A stretch of 64,000 nt of DNA from an uncultured Bacilli bacterium. Its GTDB lineage: Bacteria > Bacillota_I > Bacilli_A > RFN20 > CAG-449. The notes under the pieces were generated by a model. That model worked only from the letters and a program-made list of their open reading frames with translations. It made no database searches and was not told where the DNA came from. Of this stretch, positions 40,519 to 62,550 are shown one piece after another. The translations under genes and the position numbers were made by a program. The stretch is taken from NCBI GenBank assembly GCA_947595215.1, contig CANQEO010000004.1, positions 5,493 to 69,492 on the forward strand, read 5' to 3'. Position 1 is the stretch's first letter; each line of letters starts with the position of its first letter.

Positions 40519-40647
40519 TATCAGAGTAGTTAAGAAGCGTTAAGTGCTATGCGATGGGAAGTGGCGCATAGACGAACACATATGTGGCGGTTTCTTAACG
40601 CGTCCGCTGGTACAAGAGCGGACCTCTAGTATAAGGAGGTCTTTTTT
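40519..40647 (+). promoter_or_regulatory. THF (tetrahydrofolate) riboswitch, aptamer 40519-40612, plus terminator / SD-sequestering expression platform
   Basis: Matches the THF-I conserved blocks: AGAGUAG ... GCGUUAAGUG ... AUGGGA ... ACGAA ... GGCGGU ... CGCGUCCGCUGG. P1 is UAUCAG/CUGGUA. The downstream hairpin GACCTC-N9-GAGGTC plus TTTTTT contains the SD. The gene below it is an ECF folate S-component. Confidence 0.85.
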
Positions 40648-44106: not shown

Positions 44107-44748
44107 TTACTTTAGTTTTGATAAATTGATCGGTCTACGACAGCAATATCCTTTTCCATATCTTGTTTCAATGATATTTGGATCTGGTAATTTACGTCGT
44201 AATGATTTTATGTGCATATCAACGGTTCTTGTTTCATAAGCAGAACCTACTCCCCAGATACCATTTAAGATATCTTTACGAGTTGCATAATCTTTAGCAG
44301 AAGCAATAATTTTAAGTATTTGAAATTCTTTATTAGTAAGCTTGATAGTTTGATTATTATAAATCACTTCATTTTCTCTTACCAGAAAAGTAAATGGTCC
44401 ATGTTTTTCACTCCAACAATCACGAGTAATTTCAGTAATAGACACTAAAAATTTACTATAATTTATCGGTTTAGTAATGCATGGTATATTATCGCGTTGT
44501 TCTCTACCTAGCAATAAAAGGAATTCTTTTGAGACTATAGTACATGCTTCTTTGATTACTTCATCAAGATGGTCTTTAGTAAAATCACTATCGATAACTA
44601 TTACATCAGCTTTGCTATGTACAAGTCGTTCGGTAAAATCAATCATCCTACTAATAGTGATAACTTCATAACCATTAAGTTTTAGAATTTTTTTCGCCGC
44701 ATTATTAATTCGGCGGTCATCTTCAATCAAACATATTGTGAGTTTCAT
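44107..44748 (-). CDS. Orphan OmpR/PhoB-type response regulator (receiver + winged-helix), atypical receiver
   Basis: Receiver features EDD and VIVIDSD (acceptor Asp) and KP; the position of the usual Thr/Ser reads LLLLG. C-terminal trans_reg_C motif (RTVDMHIKSLRRKL, IETRYGKGY). The ATG at 44748 lies 7 nt after AGGAG; the track start is 44790. No histidine kinase gene is in the window. Confidence 0.75.
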   Translation of the reverse strand: MKLTICLIEDDRRINNAAKKILKLNGYEVITISRMIDFTERLVHSKADVIVIDSDFTKDHLDEVIKEACTIVSKEFLLLLGREQRDNIPCITKPINYSKFLVSITEITRDCWSEKHGPFTFLVRENEVIYNNQTIKLTNKEFQILKIIASAKDYATRKDILNGIWGVGSAYETRTVDMHIKSLRRKLPDPNIIETRYGKGYCCRRPINLSKLK

Positions 44749-44855
44749 GGGACGACTCCTAATTCTAGAATGCCAATGACATATTGCCAAACACTCTATA
44801 TATTATTTTATCTCATTATCTTATAAATACAATAAAATTGAATAAGAAAATCTTT

Positions 44856-45195: not shown

Positions 45196-47019
45196 TTAAA
45201 TTTTTACTCTAATACTAGAATAAATATCGTAAATATCGTTTTCATTTAATGCAACAGGGAAATTTTTTAGTCTAGTCATATTCACTGATTCACATAATAT
45301 TTTCATCTGATTATCATCAATTTTTATGAGCGAATTATCGAAAACATCATTAATTATTTTACTTAAATATCTCATAGCATTACTTATCGAATCTACATTA
45401 AATAATATACTTAATTTTTCAAATATAATTTCGATATGTTTAACTTTTTTTGAATCAAGAATAACGCTTTTCTTTTCTATCAATTTTTGCATAACACTAG
45501 GCAAAAGCAAAGCAACCGCCTTACCATGCGGAATATTATAAAGAGATGTTAATTTATAACTTAATGCATGAGCCGCGGTAGTTTGCGAAATATTAATAGC
45601 TTTACCAGCCAAATTTGCAGCATCAAAAATAACTTGTAAATCTTCTAATTCACCATCTAAGTATCGCTGGATATTAGGTAAAATTAACTTTATTGCCTTT
45701 TCAGCATACTCAATACTTTGAGTATTAGAATTAATTGACCACATCGATTCTATACTATGGCAAAGTGCATCAAAAATTGTGGCTTTTTTCTGTTCTAAAG
45801 ATAATGTCTCTAAAAATTTTTTTTCTAAAATCGCTACTTCTGGTATCAACATATCATCAGTTAGAGATTGCTTATTTCCTTCGAAGTAAATTACAGAATA
45901 TCTAGTAGATTCGCTTCCCGTACCTGCAGTGGTAGGAATACAAATATGCTTTAAATTAATATATTTATGATTTTGCTTCAAAAAATTATCATTACTATCT
46001 AATGGTAAAAAAAGTTTAATTGATTTAGCGGTATCAATTGCACTTCCTCCACCAATCGAAATTATAGAATCACAATTATTCTTTTTAAATAATTCTAATC
46101 CTTTTACACAATCTTCATATATTGGATTAGCTTTAAAATCACTAAAATAAATCGGCTCTAAGAATTCTTCTAATTTCTGTGTAACCCAACCATTTTTCAA
46201 AAAAGGTGCTATAACAACAAAAGGTTTTTTTATATTATATTTTCCGATAATATTTCTTATGTTTTCAAAACCATACAAAATTTCTTGTTCCTTATAATCC
46301 ATAGCTTCTATTTCTTTAGAAACCTTTTCGTAATCATCTAAATTATCAATCTCATTAATATAAAAGCCATCATATGACATAACGTTAATATTCATATTAG
46401 ACGAAACTTCATTAAAAGCATTTTCAGCATAAACATCAAATATATTTTTGTTCTCTATAAAGTCAACTACCGAATTAATCCATACCTTAAAATCTTTTTG
46501 AGACAACTTATAAAGCGGTTGAAAAGTAAAGCAATTTTCATCAAATATATTGATGCCAACTTCTACAATCCGATTATTTATTACACGTGCTTTAAAATCT
46601 TTTTCTGGTAGCGGTAAATTCTTGTTAATTAATCCTATAGATGGAAATTTATTTTCAAGAATAGTTTCAACTAGTTTCTTATTAAATACGAGATCACCAT
46701 GAAGAGTCAAGAAATCATCATTCAAAAAATCTTTTGCAAGATAAAATGAATAGATGTAATTGGTTTTATCATACAAATCATTATGGACAAAATGAAAAAT
46801 TAAATCCTTATAAGCTTCCTTTTTAGTAATTTCAATTAACTGATGTTCAAATGGCCCGGTTGTAATAACAAATTCTTTGATTCCACATTCTTGTAAAATT
46901 CTAATTTGTCTTTCAAATAACGTTTCACCATTTAGTAATTTAATCATTGATTTATGGGTATGTGATGTTAACTCACCCATTCTTTTACCTATACCGGAAT
47001 TAAAAATCAACGCTTTCAT
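45196..47019 (-). CDS. Fusion: LicC/PntC-like nucleotidyltransferase (N) + group III iron-containing alcohol dehydrogenase (C); predicted phosphonoacetaldehyde reductase
   Basis: N-terminus ALIFNSGIGKRMG ... HGD ... NEIDNLDDY (NTP_transf_3 / LicC-like). C-terminus GGGSAIDTAKSI, PTTAGTGSE and HGKAVA (Fe-ADH). Its start abuts the stop of the phosphonopyruvate decarboxylase gene. Confidence 0.75.
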   Translation of the reverse strand: MKALIFNSGIGKRMGELTSHTHKSMIKLLNGETLFERQIRILQECGIKEFVITTGPFEHQLIEITKKEAYKDLIFHFVHNDLYDKTNYIYSFYLAKDFLNDDFLTLHGDLVFNKKLVETILENKFPSIGLINKNLPLPEKDFKARVINNRIVEVGINIFDENCFTFQPLYKLSQKDFKVWINSVVDFIENKNIFDVYAENAFNEVSSNMNINVMSYDGFYINEIDNLDDYEKVSKEIEAMDYKEQEILYGFENIRNIIGKYNIKKPFVVIAPFLKNGWVTQKLEEFLEPIYFSDFKANPIYEDCVKGLELFKKNNCDSIISIGGGSAIDTAKSIKLFLPLDSNDNFLKQNHKYINLKHICIPTTAGTGSESTRYSVIYFEGNKQSLTDDMLIPEVAILEKKFLETLSLEQKKATIFDALCHSIESMWSINSNTQSIEYAEKAIKLILPNIQRYLDGELEDLQVIFDAANLAGKAINISQTTAAHALSYKLTSLYNIPHGKAVALLLPSVMQKLIEKKSVILDSKKVKHIEIIFEKLSILFNVDSISNAMRYLSKIINDVFDNSLIKIDDNQMKILCESVNMTRLKNFPVALNENDIYDIYSSIRVKI

Positions 47020-48132
47020 TTATCTTACACCTAATTTTTTCATTAATGCAATTTTATTTTCTATAGGGGTGGTAGTTGGTCTTCCAAGATTCTCCCTAGA
47101 ACCTTGTTTTGTATGTAAAACTAATGCTACTGCATTCTCTTTTTTCAATACAGAAATACCTTTTTTTATTTCATCTTGAGTTGAGGCAATTATTACATTT
47201 TTAAACCCACAAGCCTTAAGAATTGCTGGAATATCTAGTGATTTTGAACAAGTTGGTTGTCCACCGACTGATTCGTGCGCATTATTGTCATTTAGAATAT
47301 ATTTAAAATTATTAGGCATATTAGCAGCAATGACGCCTAAACTTCCCATATGCATAATAAAAGAACCATCACCATCAATGCAATAAACATTCTTATCTGT
47401 TCCAATACTTACCCCATAAGCAATAGAAGCTGTATGTCCCATAGATCCTACAGTAAGAAAATCATTTGCATGACCTTGTTTATTTGCCTCTCTAATTTCA
47501 AAAATCTCACGAGAAGTCTTGCCTGTAGTAGAGACAATTATATCTTCATCAGACAATGAATCTATAATTGCTTTTAAAGCATCTTCTCTAGTCATTGTGT
47601 AGGAAGAGGTTTCTAACTTAATCTTATAATCGGAAAATAATCCTTTTTTAATTACTAAAGCATATGGTTTGTTGTTTTTATTCATGTAATCGATAGCTCT
47701 TGTCAAAGCATCTTGATAATTATCACTCAAAACCTCATAGTCAATTCCCATCGATTGCAATAATGGTATAGTTACTTTTCCTTGTTTTACGTGTTGTGGT
47801 TCATCATGTTTACCTGGTTCACCACGCCATCCAATTATTAAGAGCATTGGAATCGAGTAAACATCTTCATCCGCTAAAGATAATAATGGATTTATAGCAT
47901 TTCCTTCACCTGAGTTTTGCATATAAACACATCCTATCTTTCCAGTTGAAAGATGATAGCCTGCACACATAGCGACAGCATTACCTTCATTAGCGGTAAT
48001 GATATTTTTCTCTTTTGAAGAATTCATTTTAATACATGCACATAAATTCGCCAATAATGAATCAGGCACACCAGCAAAAAAATCAATATTGTTATCACAT
48101 AAATAATCGTAAAACTCTTTTGTGTCAATCAT
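47020..48132 (-). CDS. ppd: Phosphonopyruvate decarboxylase (TPP-dependent)
   Basis: 370 aa with the N-terminus FYDYLCDNNIDFFAGVPDSLL and the TPP-binding GDGSFIMHMG...N motif. Directly downstream of the PEP mutase gene. Confidence 0.85.
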   Translation of the reverse strand: MIDTKEFYDYLCDNNIDFFAGVPDSLLANLCACIKMNSSKEKNIITANEGNAVAMCAGYHLSTGKIGCVYMQNSGEGNAINPLLSLADEDVYSIPMLLIIGWRGEPGKHDEPQHVKQGKVTIPLLQSMGIDYEVLSDNYQDALTRAIDYMNKNNKPYALVIKKGLFSDYKIKLETSSYTMTREDALKAIIDSLSDEDIIVSTTGKTSREIFEIREANKQGHANDFLTVGSMGHTASIAYGVSIGTDKNVYCIDGDGSFIMHMGSLGVIAANMPNNFKYILNDNNAHESVGGQPTCSKSLDIPAILKACGFKNVIIASTQDEIKKGISVLKKENAVALVLHTKQGSRENLGRPTTTPIENKIALMKKLGVR

Positions 48133-48148
48133 AATAACTACTAGCTCC

Positions 48149-49462
48149 TTATTGCTTTGTACCTGGAATAAGTTCTAAAACTTCTTTTATTGAGATACAG
48201 TACTTTTGAGATGCTTCTAATGAACGATGATGTTTTAAAACTTCTTCAGCACAGTTTTTCATTGCAGGATATGCACTTCTTAACATATGGTTTGCATGAA
48301 TTATAATGTTGGCACCCCATTCATGCAATTCTTCTTCAGTGAATTGATTATATGAAGTAGGAACTAAAATGACAGGAATATCTTTAGAGTATTCTCTAAA
48401 TCTTCTCAAAAATTCTTTAATCTCTTGACCATCTTTTTCTTTAGAATGAATCATGATACCATCAGCACAACCTTCTTCGATATAAATCTTTGCTCTCATG
48501 AGGGCTTCCTCAATACCGTAACCGGCAATTAAAGCTTCTATTCTAGCAAAAATCAAGAAATCTTTTGTAACTTGAGCGATTTTACCAGCTTTAATCTTTT
48601 TGGCAAATTCATGTGGATCATCTAATACTTGTTTTGCTTCTGTACCAAACAAAGAATTTTGTTTTAAACCTGTTTTATCTTCAATAATAATTGCAGATAC
48701 TCCTAATCTTTCCAGAGTTCTAACATTATAGGTAAAATGTTCAGTTTTTCCACCAGTATCTCCATCTAAAATAATCGGTTTAGTTGTCACTTCCATTATC
48801 TCTTCGATAGTTCTAAGTCTTGAAGTTAAATCGACTAATTCAATATCTGGTTTACCTTTAAAAGAAGAATCACATAAAGAAGATACCCACATGGCATCAA
48901 ATTCTTTTTGTGTTTCATTATCTTCTTCAACTACTTTAGTATTCTCCACAATTAAACCCGTTAATCCATTGCTAGCTTCCATAACATTAACAAATGGTTT
49001 AAGCGTTAAAAGTTTTCTTAATTTAGCGCGACGATAATCGGGAGTATTTATTAATTCACGATAATTTTGTTCTAGCATAGTACTAGAAATATCTTTTGTA
49101 TAAGGAATTTCGATTAATTTGCCGCCCCAAGTAGCTAATGTATCAATAACTTTTTGGCGAATATTTCTTTGAATACCGGTTCTCCAATCATCGCCATGAA
49201 GAACATAATCAGGTTTTAATGCTATTAAATTATCTGTGTAATCTAATGTAGTTTGCGGAACAACTTTAGTTACACCCTTTATATTTTCAAAGATAATTTT
49301 TCTTTCTTCGTATGATAAAAGAGGCAATCTTTTGTAAGAAGCAATTGCTTCATCGGTTAACAAACCGACAATAACATTTCCCAATTTTATTCCTTCTTTA
49401 ATGATATTGATGTGACCATTATGAATAACATCAGCACTCATAACTATATAAACATTTTTCAT
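48149..49462 (-). CDS. Fusion: HxGH cytidylyltransferase domain (N) + phosphoenolpyruvate phosphomutase (C), Fom1-like architecture
   Basis: N-terminus [18 protein letters not shown] (the CTP-transferase HxGH motif). The C-terminus is ICL/PEP-mutase fold, with DGDTGG and the PepM-diagnostic EDKxxxxxNS present as [13 protein letters not shown]. Confidence 0.88.
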
Positions 49463-49793
49463 AATAAACTTTATACCTTTCTTACTGGACTATTTACCAT
49501 TTTATTTTGTTCTAATATTTTTTTAGCAAGTTAGTACAATATAAACCTCCATCTACTTTTAAATTATAAATAATCGCAAAAATTTTTACTATAGTTATAT
49601 GCATAATTTTTATAATACAAAAAAAATTTTAGATATATTATCACCTGTAATTTCATCACATCATTTAACATCTATAAAATCAGCAAATGCTTTAAAATTA
49701 TCATAATTTTTATCTATAATTATTTTTTATAACTTCCTAATTTACTTTTTAATCTAATTCTATTATCACTTTCACTCTTTAAACGACAGCTTA

Positions 49794-49836
49794 TGGTTAA
49801 ACTATTTATCGCAATAGAGATTCAAATAATAGCAAT
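49794..49836. promoter_or_regulatory. 43-nt conserved box, copy B (upstream of the phosphonate operon)
   Basis: TGGTTAAACTATTTATCGCAATAGAGATTCAAATAATAGCAAT. Same orientation as copy A. Lies 332-374 nt upstream of the PepM start codon. Confidence 0.55.
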
Positions 49837-49907
49837 TAAATATTTAAATAAGTTATATCTAATTAATATTTCTAAAGTTCATCAATTTTCTATTATCTCT
49901 TAAACAT

Positions 49908-49945
49908 TAAAAATCTCCTATCCGTGTTATATTATTTTAGGAGAT
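49908..49945 (-). terminator. Rho-independent terminator after the 2-TM protein gene
   Basis: On the minus strand: ATCTCCTA-N17-TAGGAGAT followed by TTTT. Confidence 0.6.
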
Positions 49946-49971
49946 TATTTTATCTATTTTTAAATTTGTTC

Positions 49972-51189: not shown

Positions 51190-51353
51190 AAAAGATCTCC
51201 TACCAATATAATTCATTAAGTAAAATGTAACATATAAATCGCATTAAATCAAATTTATTATTGTTACTAAAGCGTGGCGATAATAGTATCAATTATAAAA
51301 AAAATATGGTTACGATATTAAAAATTTATGTAATCGAAAATGAAAAATACAAA

Positions 51354-51878: not shown

Positions 51879-52421
51879 TTATTTTATAAATATTGGAATA
51901 TTTAAATGTGAATTGTTATTACTAATTTTTCTTGCCGGAACTCCTCCCCACGTTGTTCCCTCTTCAGTTATGCTTTTTGTAACTACTGCATTTGCTCCAA
52001 TCGCTACATCAGAAGCTATTTTTATATTTCCGATTACTTTACTGCCACTTCCTAATAATATGTTATCTCCAAGAATTGGAACATGATTAGATGGGCCCGA
52101 AGCACCTATTATACATTGAGCATGGATGCGAAGATTTTTACCAACTTTTGCTTTTCCATTTATAAAAATGCATCCTAAATGAGCTATTGATAATCCTGGT
52201 TCACATACATTCAAAGGTATATATGTTATATACTTATTGCTCAATCTATTTAATATAAACTTGTAGATTCGAAATCTTATTCTTTTATTGCAATTATAAA
52301 AATACTCGCAATAACGCAATAATTTAACATATTTAAACTCCTTCGAATTTAAACTTTGATTATTCTCAGAATCTTTCTTAATATATTCTTTTAAATCATT
52401 TTTTGTTTTTATCATAAGCAA
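51879..52421 (-). CDS. Left-handed beta-helix (hexapeptide) O-acetyltransferase, WcaB/CysE-like
   Basis: Hexapeptide repeats (IHAQCIIGASG..., LGDNILLGSGSKVIGNIKIASDVAIGANAVV). Located in the glycan locus. Confidence 0.75.
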   Translation of the reverse strand: MLMIKTKNDLKEYIKKDSENNQSLNSKEFKYVKLLRYCEYFYNCNKRIRFRIYKFILNRLSNKYITYIPLNVCEPGLSIAHLGCIFINGKAKVGKNLRIHAQCIIGASGPSNHVPILGDNILLGSGSKVIGNIKIASDVAIGANAVVTKSITEEGTTWGGVPARKISNNNSHLNIPIFIK

Positions 52422-52534
52422 ATGATAAAAAATATTTTAGTGTAAGACAATGTGTTTGTTATAAAATAAAAGATGTATATCTTTTTTACAATTATAATCA
52501 AAATTAAAAAATAAAGTTTTCAAAATGGAATATC

Positions 52535-54022
52535 TTAATATTTTCTTTGTTTTTTTCGCAGTAATTTTAATAAGTTTTTATTTATTAATAGATTAGTCGA
52601 CAATACAACGACAGAAGAAATAATTGTAAAAATCAAGCCATAAATTATAAAAGTAAAATAATCATTTATATCTGGTTTATAAAAATAATTGACTATAACA
52701 GCTAGAAAAAAAAGTAAGAAATTAAGAATTGCTGTCAAAGTTGTCTTATAACCTTTTCTTTTTAAAATAATTTTATCAGAAATTATGTTTACATAGATAA
52801 CCTTTATTGGAAGAGCTATTACAGTAGCCAATAAAACTCCAATTATACCAATAAATTTTACTAAAATGATAGATAATGACAGATTTATAAAAGCCTCAAG
52901 CAATGAAATATAACTCAATTTTTTAGCATATCCACCCAAGCCACATAGATTTTGACCAACATATCTACTCCAAGAAAACATTTGAACAAGACAAAATAAA
53001 ATAGGTAAACCCGGTATTAAATAATCTATATCATTAACTCCATTTGTATATAATTTAACAAAAGGTATGATTAAAAAATACGAAACTATCATTAGAATTG
53101 AAATCGAGCCACAAATGATAGAATTGAAATTATCATGAATTATCGTATATTTTTCTTTGCTTTCACTGAATGATTGACCAAGTATATGTTGCACGCTTCC
53201 AACACATGCATTTAACAACATATTTAAACTTGCAAAAACTAAATTGTAAACAGAATAAATACTTGCTGTTTCAGTAGAAATAAAAATCGATAAAATAACC
53301 ATATCTGTCGATGAAAAAATAGTCCACGCAATTTCTGTAATAATATATGAATTTCTATCTTTTAATTTTTCATTATTATCATCGGATTTAAAATTAACCC
53401 AAGCATAATGTTTTTTTGCATACAAGTTATAGATTAGTACTTTAATTAATGAAACAATAAAAAAACCAACTTGAATTAATGCAATATTAAATGAGAATAT
53501 AGCTAATAAAATTTTAACAACATAACAAAGTGTTTTAACTAATAAATCCACATTAGCCTTTACATAGTTTCTTCCATCGGCAATAAAAATACAATTCCAT
53601 TTCTCAACGAAATAAAATGATACAACACTTGTAAGTCCTTCAAACAATACATAAATTGCAATTGTCCAATAAGAAACTTTAGTTTTAAGAATAAAAGGTA
53701 ATACAAATGATAAAATAATTATCGTTAAAAGATAAAATATTGTTATTTTCTTAAAATATTTTTTCGAAATACTAAGTACTCTAGAAATATTTTCTTTATC
53801 ATCATTTTTTATATATGGATATAAGGAATTTCTTGTTGCTTGTCCGATACCAGCCTCCAATAATGCCACATAAGAAAAGATTTGAGTTATAGTACTTGTA
53901 AAGCCATTTGTGTCAGATCCATAGTTTAACAAAATAATACGTGGGATTATTAGTCCTAATATAAGAATAATTGATTGACTTATTAAACCAAAAGCAATAT
54001 TTTTAAATGCATTTTTCTTCAT
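52535..54022 (-). CDS. wzx: Wzx-type oligosaccharide flippase (MOP superfamily)
   Basis: Polytopic protein of about 495 aa with roughly 12-14 TM helices. The ATG at 54022 follows GGAGTG; the track start is 54079. Confidence 0.7.
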   Translation of the reverse strand: MKKNAFKNIAFGLISQSIILILGLIIPRIILLNYGSDTNGFTSTITQIFSYVALLEAGIGQATRNSLYPYIKNDDKENISRVLSISKKYFKKITIFYLLTIIILSFVLPFILKTKVSYWTIAIYVLFEGLTSVVSFYFVEKWNCIFIADGRNYVKANVDLLVKTLCYVVKILLAIFSFNIALIQVGFFIVSLIKVLIYNLYAKKHYAWVNFKSDDNNEKLKDRNSYIITEIAWTIFSSTDMVILSIFISTETASIYSVYNLVFASLNMLLNACVGSVQHILGQSFSESKEKYTIIHDNFNSIICGSISILMIVSYFLIIPFVKLYTNGVNDIDYLIPGLPILFCLVQMFSWSRYVGQNLCGLGGYAKKLSYISLLEAFINLSLSIILVKFIGIIGVLLATVIALPIKVIYVNIISDKIILKRKGYKTTLTAILNFLLFFLAVIVNYFYKPDINDYFTFIIYGLIFTIISSVVVLSTNLLINKNLLKLLRKKQRKY

Positions 54023-54932
54023 AATCACTCCAATTAAATCTTTGACACCATTGTTCAAGAGAAAAATATTCAACCACATCTTTTGAATAATCGATAAAAG
54101 GTTTATTCAAAAATGTAATAATTTCCTTATAGTTAAATCCATCCAAAACTAAAATATTATTCGGATTAAAGAATTTTTCATTTAATACATTCTTATTAGT
54201 AGTAATTAATTTCTTATTGAAATATATTGCTTCTTGAATTCTTAACGAATAACCAGCCTGATTAGTTTCAACATCTAATATAGCCTTACTTGAAACAATT
54301 TTTTTTAAGTATTCCTCATAAGGAATATAATTTTCTTGAGATATAGATAAATTTTTGGAAATAGCATTATCACATATAATTGTAAAATCCATTTTCAATA
54401 ACAAATTATTCATAATATTATATAAATCAAATTCATCAATTACTCTTCTTTTATACTTTCCCACAAAACAAATATCAAATTTTATATCAGTTTTTGGAAA
54501 ATCCTTTTTAAAATATGGCAAGGGATTATAAAGCAACTTGTATTTTTGACAATCAATAATGTCAAATGAGGAAATAAGAAAATTTGTTTTCTTCTTCAAT
54601 TGCTCTATTTTTTTTTCGGCTGACTTAGCAGAAGTAGAATTCATAAAGTAAAAAACCATTTTTTTTCTTAAACTTAGTTTTGATAGATATTTTAATATTT
54701 GCTTATTTTGTAAACAACTATCTAAAATAATTATTTGATCATACTTTTTTATAATTTTTAAATTGATATTGTAACAAAAACTAGGAATCGGAAGTTTGAA
54801 TTTACAACAAAATCTTTTTATAAAATAAAAAATTTTAGATTCATTAAAAATTTCAATTACTTTAAAATTTTTCAAATTAACAAAATTGAAAAAGTAATCA
54901 TCATGATTTAATTTAACAATTAATGTAGTCAT
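54003..54932 (-). CDS. Hypothetical transferase-like protein (C-terminal half resembles the GT-B / Glyco_trans_1_2, CgeB-like fold)
   Basis: Pattern DICFVGKY...R....L........Y.EYLKKIVSSKAILDV.......YSLRIQEAIYFNKKLITT, typical of a GT-B C-terminal Rossmann half. The N-terminal half is unassigned. Confidence 0.35.
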   Translation of the reverse strand: MTTLIVKLNHDDYFFNFVNLKNFKVIEIFNESKIFYFIKRFCCKFKLPIPSFCYNINLKIIKKYDQIIILDSCLQNKQILKYLSKLSLRKKMVFYFMNSTSAKSAEKKIEQLKKKTNFLISSFDIIDCQKYKLLYNPLPYFKKDFPKTDIKFDICFVGKYKRRVIDEFDLYNIMNNLLLKMDFTIICDNAISKNLSISQENYIPYEEYLKKIVSSKAILDVETNQAGYSLRIQEAIYFNKKLITTNKNVLNEKFFNPNNILVLDGFNYKEIITFLNKPFIDYSKDVVEYFSLEQWCQRFNWSDYEEKCI

Positions 54933-56184
54933 ATTTTTTTCTCCTTTTCGAAAAATTCATATTTAAATATGTAATACCAATTAGTCCAGGATAGAATAAA
55001 TCGGTTTGTGCTAAAGTAGTATTTAAGAACAAAAATATAAATAATAGTAAAAGAGAATATTTTCTATTTAAGAAATAAGGATATAGTAACCAAATAATAA
55101 CTAAAATTAGTGCAACAACACCATAAACCACACCAAAGCTTAAGATACTGGCAGCAACGTAACCAGTCCCTTTTATTAAAGCAGTAAAATTGTTATAACC
55201 AATTCCAAATGGATTTTTTATCATAGAATCTACGCACAATTCTATCATTCCAATACGATAATATCCTGTATCTATAGTTAAGTCTAATTGACCATTAGAA
55301 AATACTTTACCTATAAAATTTTCATATATTAAACTATTTTCACCTCTTATAGCAAAATCAAATACTGCAATTAATAAAATTAAAAGTAATATAAACACAA
55401 AAATATTTTTTTGCATTGACTTATACTTCCTATTAAAAATATAAAAGATGGCTAAAATTAAGAAACTAATGAATCCAGTCGTAGACTGACATGACAAAAG
55501 ACATAATAACGCTACAATTAACGTTTGGTTTCTTAAACTCTTATCTCCTATGTAATCGCTTTTAAATAACACAATATACAAAATAAAGTTTATCATTATC
55601 TGATAAACACCGGGTTCAGTATAAATTCCACAATTTCTATAAGGATGAAGATTGGCATTATACGTATATAATATAAAACCTCTACTATATTCGTATTTTT
55701 CATAACCTGCAACACCCCATTTAGCAGTTAAATATTCATGAAAAATTGACATTTGAAAAAAACTTGGAAAAATAAGTTGAATAATGAAAAAAAGTAAACT
55801 TATCCCAAAAAAGAATTTAGCACATTTTGCTAACCTCGTACAAAACATTTTTTTATTTATGTTTATTGCAGCATTACATATTAATATTCCATTCAAAAAA
55901 TCAATTGTCCCTTTTACTCCGATACCACCTACCATCAATCGACCGAAAAATGTTATTATTGTCAATATAAATAAAATTGCTAATGTATAATTATTCCTAA
56001 TCCCTTTATTCAATAAAGTAACTGCCAATAAAAAAATAAAAATCACAATTTTAACTATTGACGGAATAACCTTTGCATACAAAGAACTTCCTGGTATATA
56101 TAAAAACATTATGATGAGTAAATATTGCAAAAGCTCGGATACTTTAATTGAAGATAACTTTTCTTTTAACATCAATTTTTCCAT
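54913..56184 (-). CDS. wzy: Wzy-like polysaccharide polymerase / O-antigen ligase-like polytopic membrane protein
   Basis: 423 aa with about 10-12 TM helices and one larger loop. Adjacent to the flippase gene. Confidence 0.55.
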   Translation of the reverse strand: MEKLMLKEKLSSIKVSELLQYLLIIMFLYIPGSSLYAKVIPSIVKIVIFIFLLAVTLLNKGIRNNYTLAILFILTIITFFGRLMVGGIGVKGTIDFLNGILICNAAININKKMFCTRLAKCAKFFFGISLLFFIIQLIFPSFFQMSIFHEYLTAKWGVAGYEKYEYSRGFILYTYNANLHPYRNCGIYTEPGVYQIMINFILYIVLFKSDYIGDKSLRNQTLIVALLCLLSCQSTTGFISFLILAIFYIFNRKYKSMQKNIFVFILLLILLIAVFDFAIRGENSLIYENFIGKVFSNGQLDLTIDTGYYRIGMIELCVDSMIKNPFGIGYNNFTALIKGTGYVAASILSFGVVYGVVALILVIIWLLYPYFLNRKYSLLLLFIFLFLNTTLAQTDLFYPGLIGITYLNMNFSKRRKKYDYINC

Positions 56185-56487
56185 AGTTAGATTTATTCTT
56201 TCCTCCGATGCAATACTTTCTATTGTGAATATTCTTTTCTCTTTAAATAGAGATTATTTTTCAAATATAGATTAATCAGCTCTTTATTTATTATAAACAA
56301 CTAGCATTCAATTAAAAAGGATAAAATAATTTTTATAATAATATGAAAGAAATTATATCATAATACTTTTTTCCATATTAACTTAAAATCAACTATAAAA
56401 AACCACTTTTTTTACTTTGTAACGCTGCTCGAAACAAATTATAAAGCAACAATTGACATTTTCTTTGCTATAGTTCCTCTTAAAATA

Positions 56488-57525
56488 TTACGCATCTTTC
56501 TTTTCTTTAGGTTTGTAATTTCTTTCTAACCAATTCATATATTCTCCAGATTCGACATTTTGAATCCAATCTTGATGTTCAAGGTTCCATTTAATAGTAG
56601 CTTGAATTCCAGTATCAAAATTATGCTTCGGTTTCCAACCTAATTCGGATTCTATTTTTGTAGGATCCATCGCATATCGTAAATCATGACCCGGACGATC
56701 TTTTACGTAACTTATTAACGATTCAGGTTTACCTAGTGTTTTTAAAATCGTTTTTACAACCTCTAAATTGGTCTTTTCATTATGTCCACCAATATTATAT
56801 ATCTCTCCATTGCGACCATTTCTAACAATCAAATCAATTGCAGTACAATGATCTTCAACATATAGCCAGTCTCTAACATTGCTACCATTACCATATACTG
56901 GTAAAGGTTCATTTTTTAGGGCCTTTTGAATCATTAATGGAATTAATTTTTCAGGAAAATGATATGGTCCATAGTTATTTGAACACCTTGAAATAGTTAC
57001 TGGTAAATTATAAGTTCTATGATATGCTAAAACTAACAAGTCTGCGCTTGCTTTAGATGCGCTATATGGACTTGAAGTATGTAGAGGAGTATCTTCATGG
57101 AAAAACAAATCAGGTCTATCTAGTGGTAAATCTCCATATACTTCATCTGTAGAAACTTGATGATATCTTTTTATACCATATTTTCTACATGCATCCATTA
57201 AAACTTGAGTTCCTAAAATATTTGTCTTCAAGAAAATTTCAGGATTTTCAATTGAACGATCCACATGAGACTCAGCCGCAAAGTTAATGACATAATCAAA
57301 ATTTTCCTCTTTAAATATTTTATATATGGCTTCACGATTACAAATATTTTCATGTATAAATTTAAAATTTGGTTTATTTAAAATAGGACCTAAAGTCTCC
57401 ATATTACCAGCATATGTTAAGGCATCAATGCATACAAAAAAATCATTCGGATATTTGTCAACCATAATGTGAAGGTAATTTCCACCTATAAAACCAGCTC
57501 CACCACTTACTAAAAATTTTGCCAT
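56488..57525 (-). CDS. rfbB: dTDP-glucose 4,6-dehydratase
   Basis: GGAGFIGGN, the YSASKASAD catalytic motif, and an extended-SDR layout over 345 aa. Confidence 0.9.
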   Translation of the reverse strand: MAKFLVSGGAGFIGGNYLHIMVDKYPNDFFVCIDALTYAGNMETLGPILNKPNFKFIHENICNREAIYKIFKEENFDYVINFAAESHVDRSIENPEIFLKTNILGTQVLMDACRKYGIKRYHQVSTDEVYGDLPLDRPDLFFHEDTPLHTSSPYSASKASADLLVLAYHRTYNLPVTISRCSNNYGPYHFPEKLIPLMIQKALKNEPLPVYGNGSNVRDWLYVEDHCTAIDLIVRNGRNGEIYNIGGHNEKTNLEVVKTILKTLGKPESLISYVKDRPGHDLRYAMDPTKIESELGWKPKHNFDTGIQATIKWNLEHQDWIQNVESGEYMNWLERNYKPKEKKDA

Positions 57526-57664
57526 ATAAATCTCCTTTATATTTAAGCTATTAAAGCCATTTCGAATAATTGTATCATGTTATTTATGCATTGTCAAATT
57601 TTACAGATTAAGGTAATACCATTGCGTCAATATTTAGTCAAAGTTAAAAGTTGTATTAATGTAG

Positions 57665-58579
57665 TTATATTTTCAAATTCTTTTTTAACCAAGTAGCTGT
57701 TTTTAAAATTGATTCTTTAAAATCACTTTTTGGAGTAAAACCGGTGTCCTCTCGAAGTGCCTTTAAATTAATTAACGAATAATTTATAGCGTTCGTATCA
57801 GCATAAACGCCAAAATTCAATACTCCATTAGGATTTACAAAATCTCGAATACTTCTAAAAATTGTTCCAAACGTAGAAATGGTATCGTGACCAATATAGT
57901 ATGTTTTCTGATTTATACCTTTCTCGCCAATCGCATAGAATGCTCTTGCAACATCTTCAACGTAAATTAAATCGTATGGAGTATCATCGGGAATTAAATT
58001 TGACGGATTATTTTTTAATAGATTTTCTAATACAATATTAGGTATCATTTTAGATTTATTATTTTCGCCATAAACCATTGCAATTAATCCACAATTAAAC
58101 TCTATGTTATTTTGATATGCCAATGTTTTACAAATCATTTCTGCTGAAAGTTTACAAGTAGCATAAACATTAGTATAGCGCGGTTCAAAAGAATCTAATG
58201 ACATATAGTGACGCGTTTCTAACACATTAACAGAAGAAGCTAAGATAAACTTTTTACAACTCAAATTTTTTGCAATCATTAATGCATCACATGCATATTT
58301 ACAATTTAAAAGTTGCAATTCATAATTTTTAAATGCTTCTCCGAATACTCCATTCCAAGCTAGATGGTAAAAACAATCTAAGTTTCTCGGTAATTTATCT
58401 TTTAAAATATAGTACTCTTCAAAATAAGCTTTAATAAAGTGTAATTTATCACATTTTAAACTATTTAAACGATCTTCATCAGTACCAACCGCATACACTT
58501 CGACACCTTGTTTTAAAAGATATTCAACTAAGCGAGACCCAATAAATCCAGTTGCACCAGTTACACAAACCGCTTTCAT
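57665..58579 (-). CDS. NAD(P)-dependent extended SDR (epimerase/dehydratase family); predicted dTDP-4-keto-sugar 4-ketoreductase
   Basis: VTGATGFIGSRL and YATCK (YxxxK). Its position follows the epimerase gene in the deoxysugar operon. Confidence 0.65.
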   Translation of the reverse strand: MKAVCVTGATGFIGSRLVEYLLKQGVEVYAVGTDEDRLNSLKCDKLHFIKAYFEEYYILKDKLPRNLDCFYHLAWNGVFGEAFKNYELQLLNCKYACDALMIAKNLSCKKFILASSVNVLETRHYMSLDSFEPRYTNVYATCKLSAEMICKTLAYQNNIEFNCGLIAMVYGENNKSKMIPNIVLENLLKNNPSNLIPDDTPYDLIYVEDVARAFYAIGEKGINQKTYYIGHDTISTFGTIFRSIRDFVNPNGVLNFGVYADTNAINYSLINLKALREDTGFTPKSDFKESILKTATWLKKNLKI

Positions 58580-59146
58580 TTAATTATTTTCCTTCATGGT
58601 AAAATTGACATCGCTATCTTTTAAATAAGGAGCGGTAATATCCTTTTGTGAAACAATCGGATTATCACAACCCCAAGGAATATTAATCTCAGGATCATCC
58701 CATTTTATAGAACGATCAAGTTTAGGTTCATAGAGTCCATCAACTTTGTAAAGAACTTCACACTCATCAACCAAAGTTATAAAAGCATGACCAAAACCCG
58801 ATGGAATAAGGATTTGTTTTCTATTTTCTTTACTTAATTCGACACAAACCCACTTTTTAAAAGTAGGTGAATCTTTTCTTAAATCAACAGCATAATCCAT
58901 TACTTTTCCATTGGTGCAACGTACTAACTTTGCTTGAGGAACAGGATTGTTTTGAAAATGAATACCGCGAATAGTACCCTTTTTTATTGAATATGAATGA
59001 TTATCTTGGACAAAATCCAAATTTATCCCCAGATTTAATAACGTTCTTTTCGAATAAACTTCACTATAATATCCGCGATAATCTTCAAAATAATCCGGTT
59101 CGATAACTTTTACACCTAATCCAATTTCTGTAATTTTAGCACCCAT
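58580..59146 (-). CDS. dTDP-4-keto-6-deoxyhexose 3,5-epimerase (RmlC-like cupin)
   Basis: FEDYRGYY, RGIHFQ and GFGHAF motifs. The ATG at 59146 follows GGAGG; the track start is 59170. Confidence 0.85.
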   Translation of the reverse strand: MGAKITEIGLGVKVIEPDYFEDYRGYYSEVYSKRTLLNLGINLDFVQDNHSYSIKKGTIRGIHFQNNPVPQAKLVRCTNGKVMDYAVDLRKDSPTFKKWVCVELSKENRKQILIPSGFGHAFITLVDECEVLYKVDGLYEPKLDRSIKWDDPEINIPWGCDNPIVSQKDITAPYLKDSDVNFTMKENN

Positions 59147-59147
59147 T

Positions 59148-60170
59148 TTAAATGTCCTCCTTAAATTCATCTACTAACTTAGATTGAATAACTAAATTTT
59201 TATAATTTTCATCTCTAATTTTATCATCATAAATACATTTTATAAAGTGTTCTATTGATTTTCTAAAAGAATCGTCGGCAGGAAGTTTTACTTTATTTGT
59301 TTCATTTCCTAATGTTATTGTGACTAAAGGCTCAAAATTATCAGGAGCAGTTAATATTCTATTTGTGTAAATAGTTCCTTTTGATCCCCAAATTTCTAGT
59401 TCACATTTGTAAGAATTGTCCATTCCGAAAGATACTTGACAAATAGTTCCTTCATCATTTACTAGTGTACCACTACCATATATATCGACATCAAAATTAT
59501 CTACATAATTTAATTGATGCGTTACCAATCTAGCTGATGAACCTAATAGTCGTGTTGCTAATTTTAAGGTATAGCCACCACAATCTAATAATGCACCACC
59601 ACCTAGATTTTTATTGTATCGAAAATCATTTTTTCCTCTAAATGGAAAGCCAAAAGCAATTCTAATTAACCTTGTACTTCCGAACGATTCTTTCCTTATT
59701 TCATTTTCAATAAATTCTATTTGACTATGGAAATTAAACATATAATTTTCGTGGAGAGCTAACTTATTTTCTTTTGCAATATCGACTAATTCTGTAGTAT
59801 CTGTTAATTGTGTAGTCGATGGTTTTTCAACAAAAACATGCTTACCATTTTCTAGAGCCAATTTCGCCCATTTAAAGTGAAGCGCAGGTGGTAATGGAAT
59901 ATATACTGCATCTATTTTATCACTCTTTAATAATGATTCGTAACTATCAAATATTTCTCCACCATATGATTCTTTAAATTTTAATGCTTTATCATACTCT
60001 ATTTTTAAGATATTTAAATCATTGTTGGGAGAGGTTTTTCCAAACCATTCTTCTTCGTTTGCAGCAGCAATACCGATATATTCTATATCTTCTACTTTTT
60101 TTAGAGCGGGCATAAATCTTCTGAATGCAATTTCAGAAGGGCATAGAATTGCTAATCTTATTTTTGTCAT
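59148..60170 (-). CDS. Gfo/Idh/MocA-family oxidoreductase; predicted NDP-hexose 3-ketoreductase
   Basis: N-terminal Rossmann fold and the EKP motif (VFVEKPST). Lies immediately downstream of the 2,3-dehydratase gene, as in deoxysugar clusters. Confidence 0.7.
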   Translation of the reverse strand: MTKIRLAILCPSEIAFRRFMPALKKVEDIEYIGIAAANEEEWFGKTSPNNDLNILKIEYDKALKFKESYGGEIFDSYESLLKSDKIDAVYIPLPPALHFKWAKLALENGKHVFVEKPSTTQLTDTTELVDIAKENKLALHENYMFNFHSQIEFIENEIRKESFGSTRLIRIAFGFPFRGKNDFRYNKNLGGGALLDCGGYTLKLATRLLGSSARLVTHQLNYVDNFDVDIYGSGTLVNDEGTICQVSFGMDNSYKCELEIWGSKGTIYTNRILTAPDNFEPLVTITLGNETNKVKLPADDSFRKSIEHFIKCIYDDKIRDENYKNLVIQSKLVDEFKEDI

Positions 60171-60171
60171 A

Positions 60172-61542: not shown

Positions 61543-61553
61543 ATTGAAACCTT

Positions 61554-62438
61554 TTAATAAATAATTTTTCCTTTTGCAACGTTAAGTAAATGCTCTCCAT
61601 ATTGGTTTTTCGCCATTGACTTTCCAATTTCTATTAATTGATCTTTGGTAATCCATCCGTTTTTGTATGCAATTTCTTCAGGACAGCACACTTTTATTCC
61701 TTGATGATCCTCTAAAATTTTAATATAGTTAGATGCATCAACCAAAGATTCATGCGTTCCAGTATCTAACCAAGAATATCCTCTTCCAAGAGTAGTAACA
61801 TGTAATTTATTTTGTTCAAGATACATATTATTCAAAGATGTAATTTCATACTCCCCTCTTTCAGAAAGCGGAACCGACTTAGCTAATTTGGTGACTCCTT
61901 TTGGATAAAAGTATAATCCTGTAACACAATAATTCGATTTAGGATTTTTTGGTTTTTCTTCAATAGAGATTGCATTATTATTCTCATCCAATTCAACAAT
62001 CCCATATCTTTCTGGGTCTTTAACAAAGTATCCATAAATAGTAGCACAATCCTCATTCGCTCTTGATACAGAATTTTTTAAATGTTTAATTAATCCTGCA
62101 CCATAGAAGATATTATCTCCTAATATCAGTGCACAAGAATCATCTCCAATAAACTCTTCTCCAATAATAAAAGCTTGTGCTAATCCATCAGGAGAAGGTT
62201 GTATTGCATACGATAAATTTATTCCAAACTTAGAACCGTCTCCTAATAATGCTTGAAAGCGAGGAGTATCCGTTGGAGTAGAAATAATTAAAATATCTTT
62301 AATGCCAGCCATCATCAAAGTACTTAATGGATAATAAATCATAGGTTTGTCGTAAACCGGTAATAATTGTTTCGAAGTAACCAGTGTTAATGGGTAAAGT
62401 CTAGTTCCAGATCCACCAGCTAATATAATTCCTTTCAT
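61554..62438 (-). CDS. rfbA: Glucose-1-phosphate thymidylyltransferase
   Basis: [18 protein letters not shown] and full-length RmlA similarity. The ATG at 62438 follows GGAGG; the track start is 62462. Confidence 0.92.
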
Positions 62439-62550
62439 ATTCATTTCCTCCATTTTGTACACATAATCAATATTAATGTATCATAATTAGACTAATCTTT
62501 GTATAAAAAATAAAATAATCAACAATTCAAAGCAAATATATAGAAATATT

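Follow-up and report, generated by a model that had tools for sequence, protein, structure and literature searches.

The cassette consists of three open reading frames, all on the (-) strand of a 64-kb stretch of DNA (the window), which encode a fusion of a cytidylyltransferase with PEP mutase (CyTase-PepM), a phosphonopyruvate decarboxylase (Ppd) and a fusion of a nucleotidyltransferase with an iron-dependent alcohol dehydrogenase (NTase-ADH) (Table 1). The gene set and coordinates are exactly those given in the preliminary description of this DNA. The three genes are tightly coupled, with 16 nt between the PepM gene and ppd and 0 nt between ppd and the NTase-ADH gene, and have the structure of an operon. 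The promoter presumably lies in the intergenic region upstream of the cassette, where a terminator-like hairpin (fold -10.9 kcal/mol, z -3.05) ends the preceding gene. Downstream of the cassette lies an orphan regulator of the OmpR family. In a few relatives, homologues likewise sit downstream of the cassette: they are present in a cluster of five loci (the window included) and again, within a subset of loci, in L027 and L085. An association with the cassette is therefore possible, but membership is uncertain.

Table 1. Features of the cassette and its surroundings
Feature	Position	Strand	Basis
Orphan OmpR-family regulator, Trans_reg_C and atypical receiver	44107..44790	(-)	Pfam; 405 nt downstream of cassette
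NTase-Fe-ADH fusion, 607 aa	45196-47019	(-)	Pfam and NCBIfam
Group III Fe-alcohol dehydrogenase domain, predicted phosphonoacetaldehyde reductase	45196..46287	(-)	PF00465 and PF25137
LicC/PntC-like nucleotidyltransferase domain, N-terminal	46288..47019	(-)	PF12804; LicC 1jyk, Tde-PntC 6pd1
Phosphonopyruvate decarboxylase, TPP-dependent, 370 aa	47020-48132	(-)	TIGR03297
CyTase-PepM fusion, 437 aa	48149-49462	(-)	Pfam and NCBIfam
PEP mutase domain, EDKxxxxxNS motif, C-terminal part	48149..49042	(-)	TIGR02320, PF13714, PDB 1m1b
Fom1-type cytidylyltransferase domain, HNGH motif, N-terminal part	49043..49462	(-)	PF01467; PDB 5x3d match
Intergenic region upstream of cassette, 509 bp	49463..49971	(-)	Sequence
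Terminator-like hairpin and U-run, ending the preceding gene	about 49905-49945	(-)	Sequence and fold
Polysaccharide locus, candidate acceptor pathway	51879..63723	(-)	Pfam, NCBIfam, homologues

The cassette had been placed inside a Wzx/Wzy locus. It is instead a transcription unit of its own, lying at the 3' edge of that locus. An unrelated, solitary NUDT22-like gene with a terminator-like hairpin on either side separates it from the polysaccharide genes, which weakens the case for co-regulation with them. The order of genes in the locus is glf, rmlA, NDP-hexose 2,3-dehydratase, GFO oxidoreductase, rmlC-like, SDR reductase, rmlB, Wzy-like, WaaS/CpsH-family glycosyltransferase, divergent Wzx and hexapeptide acetyltransferase, which predicts galactofuranose, 2,6-dideoxyhexose and O-acetyl groups in the polysaccharide. 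Among the glycan neighbours named previously, the acetyltransferase and the sugar-nucleotide genes (rmlA, rmlB, rmlC-like and glf) stand. The polymerase has a Wzy_C match below threshold (28 bits against 31.7), and the flippase, which has no Pfam match, is recognised from the names of homologues of about 50-57% identity ('lipopolysaccharide biosynthesis protein' or 'O-antigen/teichoic acid export membrane protein'). The presence of GerA, SpoVAD and sporulation-type sigma genes confirms the sporulating Firmicute background.

Domains of the cassette enzymes

In the first protein, Pfam places an N-terminal cytidylyltransferase domain (PF01467 CTP_transf_like, aa 10-131, E 1e-13) before a PEP mutase domain (PF13714, aa 150-409, E 2e-48), the latter also scoring 373 bits with TIGR02320 of NCBIfam (cut-off 319.6), and the HNGH and EDKxxxxxNS motifs are both visible in the translation. 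Over 133 aa, the N-terminal domain shares 60% identity with the cytidylyltransferase domain of Fom1, whose structure is solved (PDB 5x3d, E 3e-54), and the PEP mutase domain matches PDB 1m1b (E 3e-39). The second protein scores 445 bits with TIGR03297 against an NCBIfam cut-off of 312.5. The E-values behind the domain assignments are far beyond chance, and both the HxGH cytidylyltransferase-PepM fusion and the TPP-dependent decarboxylase were correctly recognised before.

The third protein had been described as ending in a group III Fe-ADH, and it does so (PF00465 and PF25137 at aa 252-529), with a GGGS NAD motif and the metal ligands D417, H421, H484 and H498. Left out of that account of cytidylylation was its N-terminal LicC/PntC-like nucleotidyltransferase domain. 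By Pfam the domain covers aa 1-~125 (PF12804/PF00483), and it reaches ~aa 240 according to an inositol-1-phosphate cytidylyltransferase model and the match to the structure of LicC (1jyk, E 8e-11); the similarity to Tde-PntC (6pd1, E 1.6e-5) is weaker. A GxGxR...K signature is invariant across the family of NTase-ADH fusions, as are G9, G11, R13, K23, H107, G108, D109 and E199 in alignment A1. The cassette accordingly carries two predicted cytidylyltransferase domains, a Fom1-like one on PepM and a LicC/PntC-like one on the ADH.

The proposed likeness of the ADH to FomC extends to its being a group III Fe-ADH, but the domain belongs to a separate Fe-ADH clade that is almost always found next to PepM-Ppd. 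Its top NCBIfam match is the PhpC-type equivalog TIGR03405, at 130 bits barely above the ErcA, AdhE and lactaldehyde reductase models and far under the cut-off of 423.7, so that by profile the domain is not a member of the PhpC-type family. The residues proposed to bind the phosphonate in PhpC, mapped by offset, have plausible invariant counterparts in K383, T480, Y488 and R583; these do not discriminate, because the K, T and Y are shared with the unrelated Thermotoga Fe-ADH 1o2d. It is the genomic context that points to phosphonoacetaldehyde as the substrate.

A predicted route to CMP-2-hydroxyethylphosphonate

We consider it fairly probable that the cassette is a self-contained module making a CMP-activated C2 phosphonate, 2-hydroxyethylphosphonate (HEP), for the cell envelope, with the adjacent Wzx/Wzy polysaccharide as the likeliest acceptor. 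The PepM domain would isomerise PEP to phosphonopyruvate, Ppd would decarboxylate it irreversibly to phosphonoacetaldehyde, and the Fe-ADH domain would convert the aldehyde to HEP. The LicC/PntC-like domain that shares a protein with the ADH would be the most direct candidate for then forming CMP-HEP, while the Fom1-like domain could carry out the same cytidylylation or a second reaction. From CMP-HEP the phosphonyl group would be passed to a glycopolymer of the cell surface. That a single reaction should have two cytidylyltransferase domains counts against this scheme.

The early fosfomycin route of Streptomyces wedmorensis uses Fom1 (CyTase-PepM), Fom2 (Ppd) and FomC (Fe-ADH), with CMP-HEP as an intermediate. 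The domain-for-domain resemblance of the cassette to these enzymes is borne out: the three catalytic steps and the CyTase-PepM fusion are the same, the CyTase domain is close to that of Fom1, and a group III Fe-ADH follows Ppd here too. In contrast to fosfomycin clusters, the cassette lies among envelope glycan genes, its ADH has an additional LicC/PntC-like domain and scores under the cut-off of the PhpC-type profile, and Fom3, Fom4, FomD and FomA/B are absent from the window. As noted previously, the 64 kb hold no antibiotic-tailoring genes; neither transaminase, B12 radical SAM, LicD nor C-P lyase type genes were found there. It is highly improbable that the cassette opens a pathway to a diffusible phosphonate, such as an antibiotic. 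The layout is indeed the one with which the fosfomycin, phosphinothricin and dehydrophos pathways begin (PMC8942020), and an antibiotic role has been proposed for a related Ppm-Ppd-reductase cluster of the gut archaeon Methanocorpusculum vombati (PMC10035134), but B12 radical SAM, epoxidase/cupin, ATP-grasp and NRPS genes are missing from the window, as are a kinase-type resistance gene and an exporter, and the conserved partners over about 80 loci are glycan, teichoic-acid or lipid transferases rather than tailoring enzymes.

In Treponema denticola, CMP-AEP is made by Tde1415, a fusion of PntC with AEP transaminase (Rice et al. 2019, PMC6697681; PDB 6pd1/6pd2). In both systems the enzyme turning phosphonoacetaldehyde into the final phosphonate (here by prediction) bears a PF12804 cytidylyltransferase at its N terminus, the fusion gene adjoins Ppm and Ppd, a second, Ppm-fused nucleotidyltransferase is present in the cluster, and the cell surface is the destination (again predicted here). 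By analogy, the NTase-ADH fusion would be the HEP counterpart of the Treponema protein, and we favour its LicC/PntC-like domain as the HEP activator; in Tde1415, too, PntC is joined to the enzyme of the final step to AEP. The partner differs: a class V aminotransferase in Treponema, giving AEP, and an Fe-ADH here, which predicts HEP. Moreover, Glu104 of Tde-PntC, which binds the amine of AEP, corresponds to an invariant His in the fusion family, which fits a non-amine head group. In sequence LicC is the nearer of the two, and the phosphocholine system of Streptococcus pneumoniae follows the same logic, in that a small head group is activated by a LicC-type cytidylyltransferase before it is attached to a glycopolymer; LicD is carried by many relatives of the cassette, although the window lacks LicA, LicB and LicD, and the head group of the cassette would be made de novo from PEP, with a C-P bond.

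It is conceivable, if quite improbable, that the pathway ends in something other than HEP, with the Fe-ADH clade acting on another carbonyl or alcohol (e.g. an aldehyde bound to CMP, or an intermediate further along) or one of the two nucleotidyltransferases activating another phosphonate or phospho-alcohol. That the ADH falls outside the PhpC-type family would be in line with this, and the co-occurrence of two different NTase domains in most loci and in triple fusions hints at two distinct activation reactions. Ppd is nevertheless always present, hence phosphonoacetaldehyde is the carbonyl at hand; the cassette has no other enzyme able to make a different substrate, and its Fom1-like domain is 60% identical to one that acts on HEP (Cho 2017, as cited in PMC6697681).

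Relatives of the module and the likely acceptor

Motifs of the module occur on about 580 stretches of species-representative genomes, mostly from Clostridia, with others from Bacilli, Actinomycetota, Bacteroidota and one archaeon; Gordonibacter sp. An230 and Yeguia hominis NSJ-40 are examples of cultured carriers. Linkage to PepM-Ppd is conserved: PepM and Ppd lie directly upstream in 62 of the 64 species-representative genome loci that extend for 2.6 kb or more ahead of the NTase-ADH fusion, and 52 of these 62 have the CyTase-PepM fusion. The LicC/PntC-like domain is retained at all 10 loci that have PepM without the Fom1-like domain. Given such a constant partner, the earlier assignment of cytidylylation to the Fom1-like domain only is incomplete. 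Standalone members of the ADH clade are also found beside PepM-Ppd, some in the exact Fom1/Fom2/FomC layout (L105, L106, L109, L112, L115), and fusion partners within the clade include LicD, TagF-like domains and both nucleotidyltransferases.

LicD, TagF-like and CDP-alcohol transferases all consume CMP- or CDP-activated donors. In 35 loci with full flanks, LicD and/or TagF-like genes are found at 17 and a CDP-alcohol phosphatidyltransferase at 7, while 11 have none of the three types and share no other conserved partner. In L003-L005 the cassette is embedded mid-way in cps loci (Wzy/Wzx/Wzz). Since the relatives' cassettes lie in cps loci or beside transferases that use such donors, an envelope destination is favoured. 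This part of the proposal that the cassette supplies CMP-HEP for a surface glycan gains support, whereas a phosphonyl transferase is absent from the window; LicD, TagF-like and CDP-alcohol transferase genes were found neither in the 64 kb nor in the 3.5 kb beyond.

The absence of a transferase from the window and the position of the cassette as a separate unit at the locus edge would also suit a CMP-HEP destined for another envelope polymer or lipid (a teichoic-acid-like polymer, a glycolipid or a phosphonolipid) by a transferase encoded elsewhere in the genome. The relatives, in which the cassette pairs either with TagF-like/LicD genes or with a lipid-type set of CDP-alcohol phosphatidyltransferase and acyltransferase, suggest that the module serves different acceptor systems. 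We nonetheless regard another acceptor as unlikely in this genome, given the cassettes of L003-L005 in the middle of cps loci and, in the 64 kb, the polysaccharide genes next to the cassette, where none for lipids or teichoic acids were seen. Adjacency and the relatives together suggest a functional link between the cassette and the polysaccharide locus.

HEP-bearing phosphonoglycans have been chemically proven in Glycomyces sp. and Stackebrandtia nassauensis (Yu et al. 2014, via PMC8942020 and PMC13576164), where HEP is placed on an extracellular polysaccharide via PepM, Ppd and an Fe-ADH; the same chemistry is predicted here, although those are actinomycetes with proven products and our host is an uncultured, gut-type organism resembling Clostridia. 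The view that HEP-glycans are chemically rare agrees with the passages available from these two sources, which name them only from the two actinomycetes. At the genomic level, however, a module of this kind is not unusual for a Firmicute, being common in Clostridia. Judged from its genes, the module is no rarity but widespread, and common in gut and rumen bacteria.

The cassette and its enzymes

The three minus-strand open reading frames start and end exactly where the preliminary description placed them, with intergenic gaps of 16 nt and 0 nt. The first encodes, as had also been read from the sequence, an HxGH cytidylyltransferase (CyTase) fused to a PEP mutase (PepM, or Ppm): its translation contains HNGH and an EDKxxxxxNS motif, the Pfam architecture agrees, and the mutase domain scores 373 bits with TIGR02320 against an NCBIfam equivalog cut-off of 319.6. 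Over 133 residues the CyTase N-domain shares 60% identity (E 3e-54) with the crystallised domain of Fom1 (PDB: 5x3d), an early fosfomycin enzyme of Streptomyces. By homology, this protein is a Fom1-type bifunctional CyTase-PEP mutase, predicted to cytidylylate 2-hydroxyethylphosphonate (HEP). That the second gene encodes a phosphonopyruvate decarboxylase (Ppd) is borne out by TIGR03297 (445 bits; cut-off 312.5), and both TPP-binding domains, TPP_enzyme_N and TPP_enzyme_C, are found. The third protein ends in the group III Fe-alcohol dehydrogenase (ADH) described earlier, on which Pfam agrees, and it also carries an N-terminal LicC/PntC-like nucleotidyltransferase (NTase).

Features of the cassette and its surroundings (window positions, except where a locus is named)
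Feature	Position	Strand	Description
CyTase-PepM fusion, 437 aa	48149-49462	-	PF01467 at aa 10-131; PEP mutase domain at aa 150-409
Ppd	47020-48132	-	
NTase-ADH fusion, 607 aa, two domains	45196-47019	-	N-terminal LicC/PntC-like PF12804; C-terminal group III Fe-ADH, PF00465 + PF25137
Orphan OmpR-family regulator	44107-44790	-	DNA-binding domain recognisable; Pfam misses receiver region
405/414-aa membrane-anchored protein	49972-51216	-	N-terminal transmembrane helices
WaaS/CpsH-family glycosyltransferase	54003-54932		
rmlA to rmlB sugar-nucleotide genes	56488-62462	-	
glf	62551-63723	-	
Radical SAM/SPASM protein	L011 2-1144		Partial at contig end; ~2.4-3.5 kb past the window high end
467-aa protein	4146-5549	-	No Pfam match; weak PADLOC SoFic match, E 7e-8
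tRNA-Thr(CGU)	39797-39870	+	Sole tRNA gene of the window
THF riboswitch	40520-40611	+	76 bits; gathering score 36
ECF-transporter S component	40648-41187	+	Directly downstream of the THF riboswitch

The NTase domain matches LicC (PDB: 1jyk; E 8e-11) and PntC, the phosphonyl-tailoring cytidylyltransferase of Treponema denticola (Tde-PntC, PDB: 6pd1; E 1.6e-5). Its GxG(T/S)Rx4-8PK-type signature reads SGIGKRMGELTSHTHK, in which G9, G11, R13 and K23 are invariant in alignment A1 of the fusion family. The acidic pair that binds 2-aminoethylphosphonate (AEP) in Tde-PntC is not kept whole. The position of Glu104, which binds the AEP amine, is occupied by an invariant His107, and that of Glu196, matched via LicC D192, by an invariant Glu199. 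His107 would fit a head group that is not AEP and not an amine, and does not speak against phosphonate activation. Since the PntC-like domain is retained even in loci without the Fom1-like domain, it is probably the main predicted activating enzyme.

The architecture of the NTase-ADH fusion is that of Tde1415, the T. denticola fusion of PntC with an AEP transaminase, except that the aminotransferase is replaced by the Fe-ADH. Tde1415 makes CMP-AEP, and the Fom1 domain is reported to make CMP-HEP; fusion to PF12804, PF01467 or both is seen in about 60% of Ppm proteins, and a second nucleotidyltransferase is often found in Ppm clusters (Rice et al. 2019, PMC6697681).

The metal and NAD sites of a group III Fe-ADH are intact in the ADH domain, which has the GGGS motif and the residues D417, H421, H484 and H498; of these residues, D417, H484 and H498 do not vary in A1. 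Its best NCBIfam match is the phosphonate-associated Fe-ADH model TIGR03405 ('Phn_Fe-ADH'), which presumably represents PhpC-type enzymes, with a score of 130 bits that lies below the cut-off of 423.7 and barely above those of the ErcA, AdhE and lactaldehyde reductase models. The ten nearest standalone relatives are likewise below the cut-off (130-162 bits). An exhaustive search with the domain retrieved a large clade of closer relatives at 220-370 bits, with any solved Fe-ADH reaching only ~123 bits. Many clade members are standalone enzymes of ~370 aa; others are fused to LicD, to TagF-like and MptE-like domains, or to both nucleotidyltransferase types (proteins P0244, P0246, P0248, P0259, P0263, P0284, P0290 and P0298). 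In a metagenome scan seeded with standalone ADHs, wherever the flanking DNA sufficed, clade members were once more found beside PepM and Ppd, either in the plain order CyTase-PepM, Ppd, ADH, as in Fom1/Fom2/FomC, or with triple-fusion NTase-CyTase-PepM proteins. The sub-threshold scores, the close clade and the PepM-Ppd context together argue for a distinct Fe-ADH clade that, by context, would be dedicated to PepM-Ppd pathways. The enzyme is predicted to work like FomC and PhpC, orthology to which is a separate matter. The clade fusions further suggest that CMP-HEP may serve in the manner of CDP-glycerol, perhaps for building teichoic-acid-like or poly-HEP polymers.

Lys157, Thr256, Tyr264 and Arg349 have been proposed as the phosphonate ligands of PhpC in a 2026 study (PMC13576164). 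The invariant K383, T480, Y488 and R583 of the fusion family are candidate counterparts by their spacing from the metal ligands, and the unrelated Thermotoga Fe-ADH 1o2d shares the K, T and Y. A Tyr at His+4 was rejected as a diagnostic of PhpC, being unspecific: it occurs in Thermotoga 1o2d and in 9jx4 too.

We also asked whether the cassette might make a product other than HEP. Because homologous PF01467-Ppm fusions are found in AEP clusters too (PMC8942020), the substrate specificity of the CyTase is not readable from the family alone. A transaminase is absent across the 64-kb window, and the change at the Glu104 position would fit a head group other than an amine. We regard a different product as quite improbable, and HEP as the predicted one.

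Position of the cassette and candidate transferases

On the same strand upstream of the cassette lie, in order, glf, rmlA and genes for an NDP-hexose 2,3-dehydratase, a GFO-family oxidoreductase, an rmlC-like epimerase and an SDR reductase, then rmlB, followed by a Wzy-like protein, a WaaS/CpsH-family glycosyltransferase, a 495/514-aa multi-TM protein and a hexapeptide acetyltransferase. A 662-nt gap, a solitary gene for the 405/414-aa protein and a 509-nt gap separate this locus from the cassette, and the solitary gene has terminator-like hairpins on both flanks. Because this gene and its hairpins intervene, the cassette is most likely transcribed on its own, at the 3' border of the polysaccharide genes; the preliminary description had placed it inside a Wzx/Wzy locus, which does not hold in the window. 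A consensus promoter scan of this AT-rich DNA was uninformative (100 sites; 102 expected), and an Rfam search of the intergenic regions of the cassette gave nothing credible. Downstream of the cassette are the orphan OmpR-type regulator, upp and a hydrolase. The regulator has no kinase nearby; four further loci carry a homologue of it downstream of the cassette.

The acetyltransferase and sugar-nucleotide genes named earlier as neighbours are clear, and so are the glycosyltransferases of the locus. The polymerase is a sub-threshold Wzy_C match only (28 bits; gathering score 31.7; E 2e-6), and the flippase can be named by its homologues only. The candidate Wzx, the 495/514-aa protein, had no match in a Pfam search; the names given to its homologues are lipopolysaccharide biosynthesis protein or O-antigen/teichoic acid export protein, and PF01943 or PF01554 occurs in a few of them. 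When the Wzx and Wzy candidates were compared by pairwise BLAST with their annotated counterparts in L003, the cassette locus of a relative, the result was uninformative. The priming transferase is encoded outside the sequence covered.

The genes from rmlA to rmlB, with a PF03559 2,3-dehydratase and an rmlC-like 3,5-epimerase, make up the gene set that a dTDP-2,6-dideoxyhexose would be expected to require, and glf adds galactofuranose. 2,6-Dideoxyhexoses are typical of antibiotic glycosides and, to our knowledge, unusual for a surface polysaccharide locus. The radical SAM/SPASM protein seen in L011 heads a glycosyltransferase run upstream of glf.

HMMs for LicD, TagF-like and CDP-OH_P_transf proteins, built from the relatives and confirmed with Pfam, had no match in the whole 64-kb window. 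The 3.5 kb past its end contain a radical SAM/SPASM gene and two GT1-type genes, and no LicD, TagF-like or CDP-alcohol transferase. As a HEP transferase we considered the 405/414-aa protein and rejected it: it has no Pfam, NCBIfam or PADLOC match, and its homologues at 44-75% identity are solitary and in unrelated contexts (five of five examined). Its AlphaFold model (pLDDT 85) matches human NUDT22, a UDP-glucose/galactose Nudix hydrolase, in Foldseek (E 7e-14; target TM 0.71). Judged from this fold, the protein looks like a member of an uncharacterised membrane-anchored Nudix-like family; it has ~340 relatives, and the few whose source is named are Clostridia-type. The ~200-aa proteins just upstream of PepM in two relatives (L003 and L005) were likewise set aside, as they resemble degenerate CpsD-type partners of a Wzz/CpsC protein. 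The WaaS/CpsH-family glycosyltransferase, a candidate CMP-dependent transferase, has no homologue in the other cassette loci and no PDB sequence match.

A diffusible small molecule would be in keeping with the Fom1/Fom2/FomC-like layout. A B12-radical-SAM HMM built from neighbours in the relatives had no match in the six-frame window, the radical SAM genes of the window are MiaB-like and HemN-like housekeeping types, and nearly all ORFs of at least 100 aa between 42 and 64 kb carry assignments other than antibiotic tailoring. The earlier statement that a Fom3-like enzyme is lacking is thus upheld, and the fosfomycin-type set of Fom3, epoxidase, hydrolase and resistance kinases is absent from the window, Fom3 as judged by HMM and the rest by the ORF assignments between 42 and 64 kb. 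We consider a diffusible product highly improbable.

The background of a sporulating Firmicute was recovered as described, with GerA, SpoVAD and a sporulation-type sigma factor beside housekeeping genes. The tRNA gene lies between a LysM/GH18 gene and the THF riboswitch, and the ECF-transporter S component probably belongs to a folate-family transporter that the riboswitch controls.

Relatives of the cassette and their partner genes

Among 90%-identity clusters, the NTase-ADH fusion has >100 full-length relatives that share 46-62% identity with it. A scan with one genome per species gave ~580 stretches with the family nucleotidyltransferase motifs, and the best 80 of these are mostly full-length fusions, with a few interrupted by contig ends. 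Hosts of these best 80 are Clostridia-type (45), Bacilli-type (14), Actinomycetota (13), unclassified Bacillota (4), Bacteroidota (3) and a Thermoplasmata archaeon (1). That a Firmicute making a HEP-bearing glycan would be unusual, as first thought, is contradicted at the level of genomes by this distribution, in which the module is widespread and Clostridia-type hosts dominate. The fusion of the window is 55% identical to its closest match in a species-representative genome, and sequence matches of the window itself are metagenome contigs only.

PepM and Ppd lie directly upstream of the fusion in 62 of the 64 loci with enough upstream DNA, as a Fom1-like CyTase-PepM fusion in 52 and with a PepM without the CyTase in 10. 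Partner genes were classified over the 35 loci with full flanks. LicD and/or TagF-like glycerophosphotransferase-type genes occur in 17 of them, and a lipid-type set (CDP-alcohol phosphatidyltransferase, B12-binding radical SAM, PlsC acyltransferase and AMP-ligase) in seven. The remaining 11 have none of these, as in the window, and share no family beyond the three cassette genes. Of two cultured carriers, Gordonibacter sp. An230 (L073) has a transferase-less locus of the window's kind and Yeguia hominis NSJ-40 (L046) one of the TagF type. The cassette lies within Wzy/Wzx/Wzz loci in L003-L005; in L006 a LicD domain is on the fusion itself, followed by two further LicD proteins.

The 10 loci whose PepM lacks the Fom1-like domain (L043, L051, L064, L067, L069-L072, L074 and L078; e.g. 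L078 5299-6678) come from Lachnospiraceae, Oscillospiraceae, Ruminococcus and unclassified Clostridia MAGs. Most add the lipid-type set and a 214-aa protein, and L074 and L072 have part of the set only. The B12-binding radical SAM of these loci has a Fom3-like architecture and no PDB sequence match. From their gene content, the lipid-type loci are candidates for a phosphonolipid pathway, possibly with C-methylation.

Proposed pathway and its meaning

The preliminary description proposed that the cassette supplies CMP-HEP as donor for a surface glycan, a reading that our findings support in part. Domain identities, gene coupling and conserved linkage to PepM-Ppd and to CMP/CDP-donor transferases are observed; what the ADH acts on, which domain does the activation, and which transferase and acceptor are used we infer. 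PepM would convert PEP to phosphonopyruvate and Ppd would convert this to phosphonoacetaldehyde, which the ADH domain would reduce to HEP. The PntC-like and/or the Fom1-like domain would then form CMP-HEP, whose phosphonyl group would be transferred to an envelope glycopolymer. We hold this pathway as a whole to be rather probable. The acceptor could instead be encoded elsewhere in the genome: in the window the cassette is set apart from the polysaccharide genes, and in three relatives it lies within such a locus. An acceptor other than the neighbouring polysaccharide seems unlikely to us, and transfer to an envelope glycopolymer stays our reading.

In complete genomes, HEP was assigned to 8.5% of ppm neighbourhoods, with products from only two of 10 HEP families, a methylphosphonate adduct of Nitrosopumilus and a HEP-exopolysaccharide of Stackebrandtia (Li and Horsman 2022, PMC8942020). 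Two actinomycetes alone were cited for HEP-glycans in 2026, in a study that asked for the HEP source of widespread catabolic clusters and pointed to plant-fibre-degrading habitats (PMC13576164). The gut archaeon Methanocorpusculum vombati has a cluster of Ppm, Ppd and a 'phosphonoacetaldehyde reductase', for which its authors suggested horizontal transfer because the reductase best matches an enzyme predicted in the bacterium Natronincola peptidivorans and the cluster has transposase-like genes on its flanks (PMC10035134). In comparison with these reports, the gene set thus belongs to an inventoried but biochemically untouched class of ppm neighbourhoods, and the window cassette is an ordinary member of this large uncharacterised class. 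We found no description of a PntC-like-ADH fusion or of a Firmicute HEP-glycan in the literature, by which absence is not proven.

More tentatively, and with more doubt than confidence, we suggest that HEP on surface glycopolymers is common in gut and rumen Firmicutes including this host, via a portable two-cytidylyltransferase module, and that the transferase-less loci use an unrecognised kind of phosphonyl transferase. For enzymology, the LicC/PntC-like-ADH fusion would be the HEP counterpart of the characterised PntC-AEP transaminase fusion. Two concrete, testable points are why one three-gene module has two different cytidylyltransferase domains and why about a third of the loci lack a transferase. 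If the proposal is true, this would be the first HEP-glycan outside actinomycetes and would name a producer of the environmental HEP implied by the newly described HEP-catabolic clusters (PMC13576164). HEP would then often decorate the surfaces of anaerobic bacteria in gut and rumen, beside the well-known AEP. It would bear on phosphorus cycling in gut and rumen habitats, dedicated HEP-degrading clusters having been reported in 2026, and on the surface antigenicity of commensals and their recognition by phage or host.
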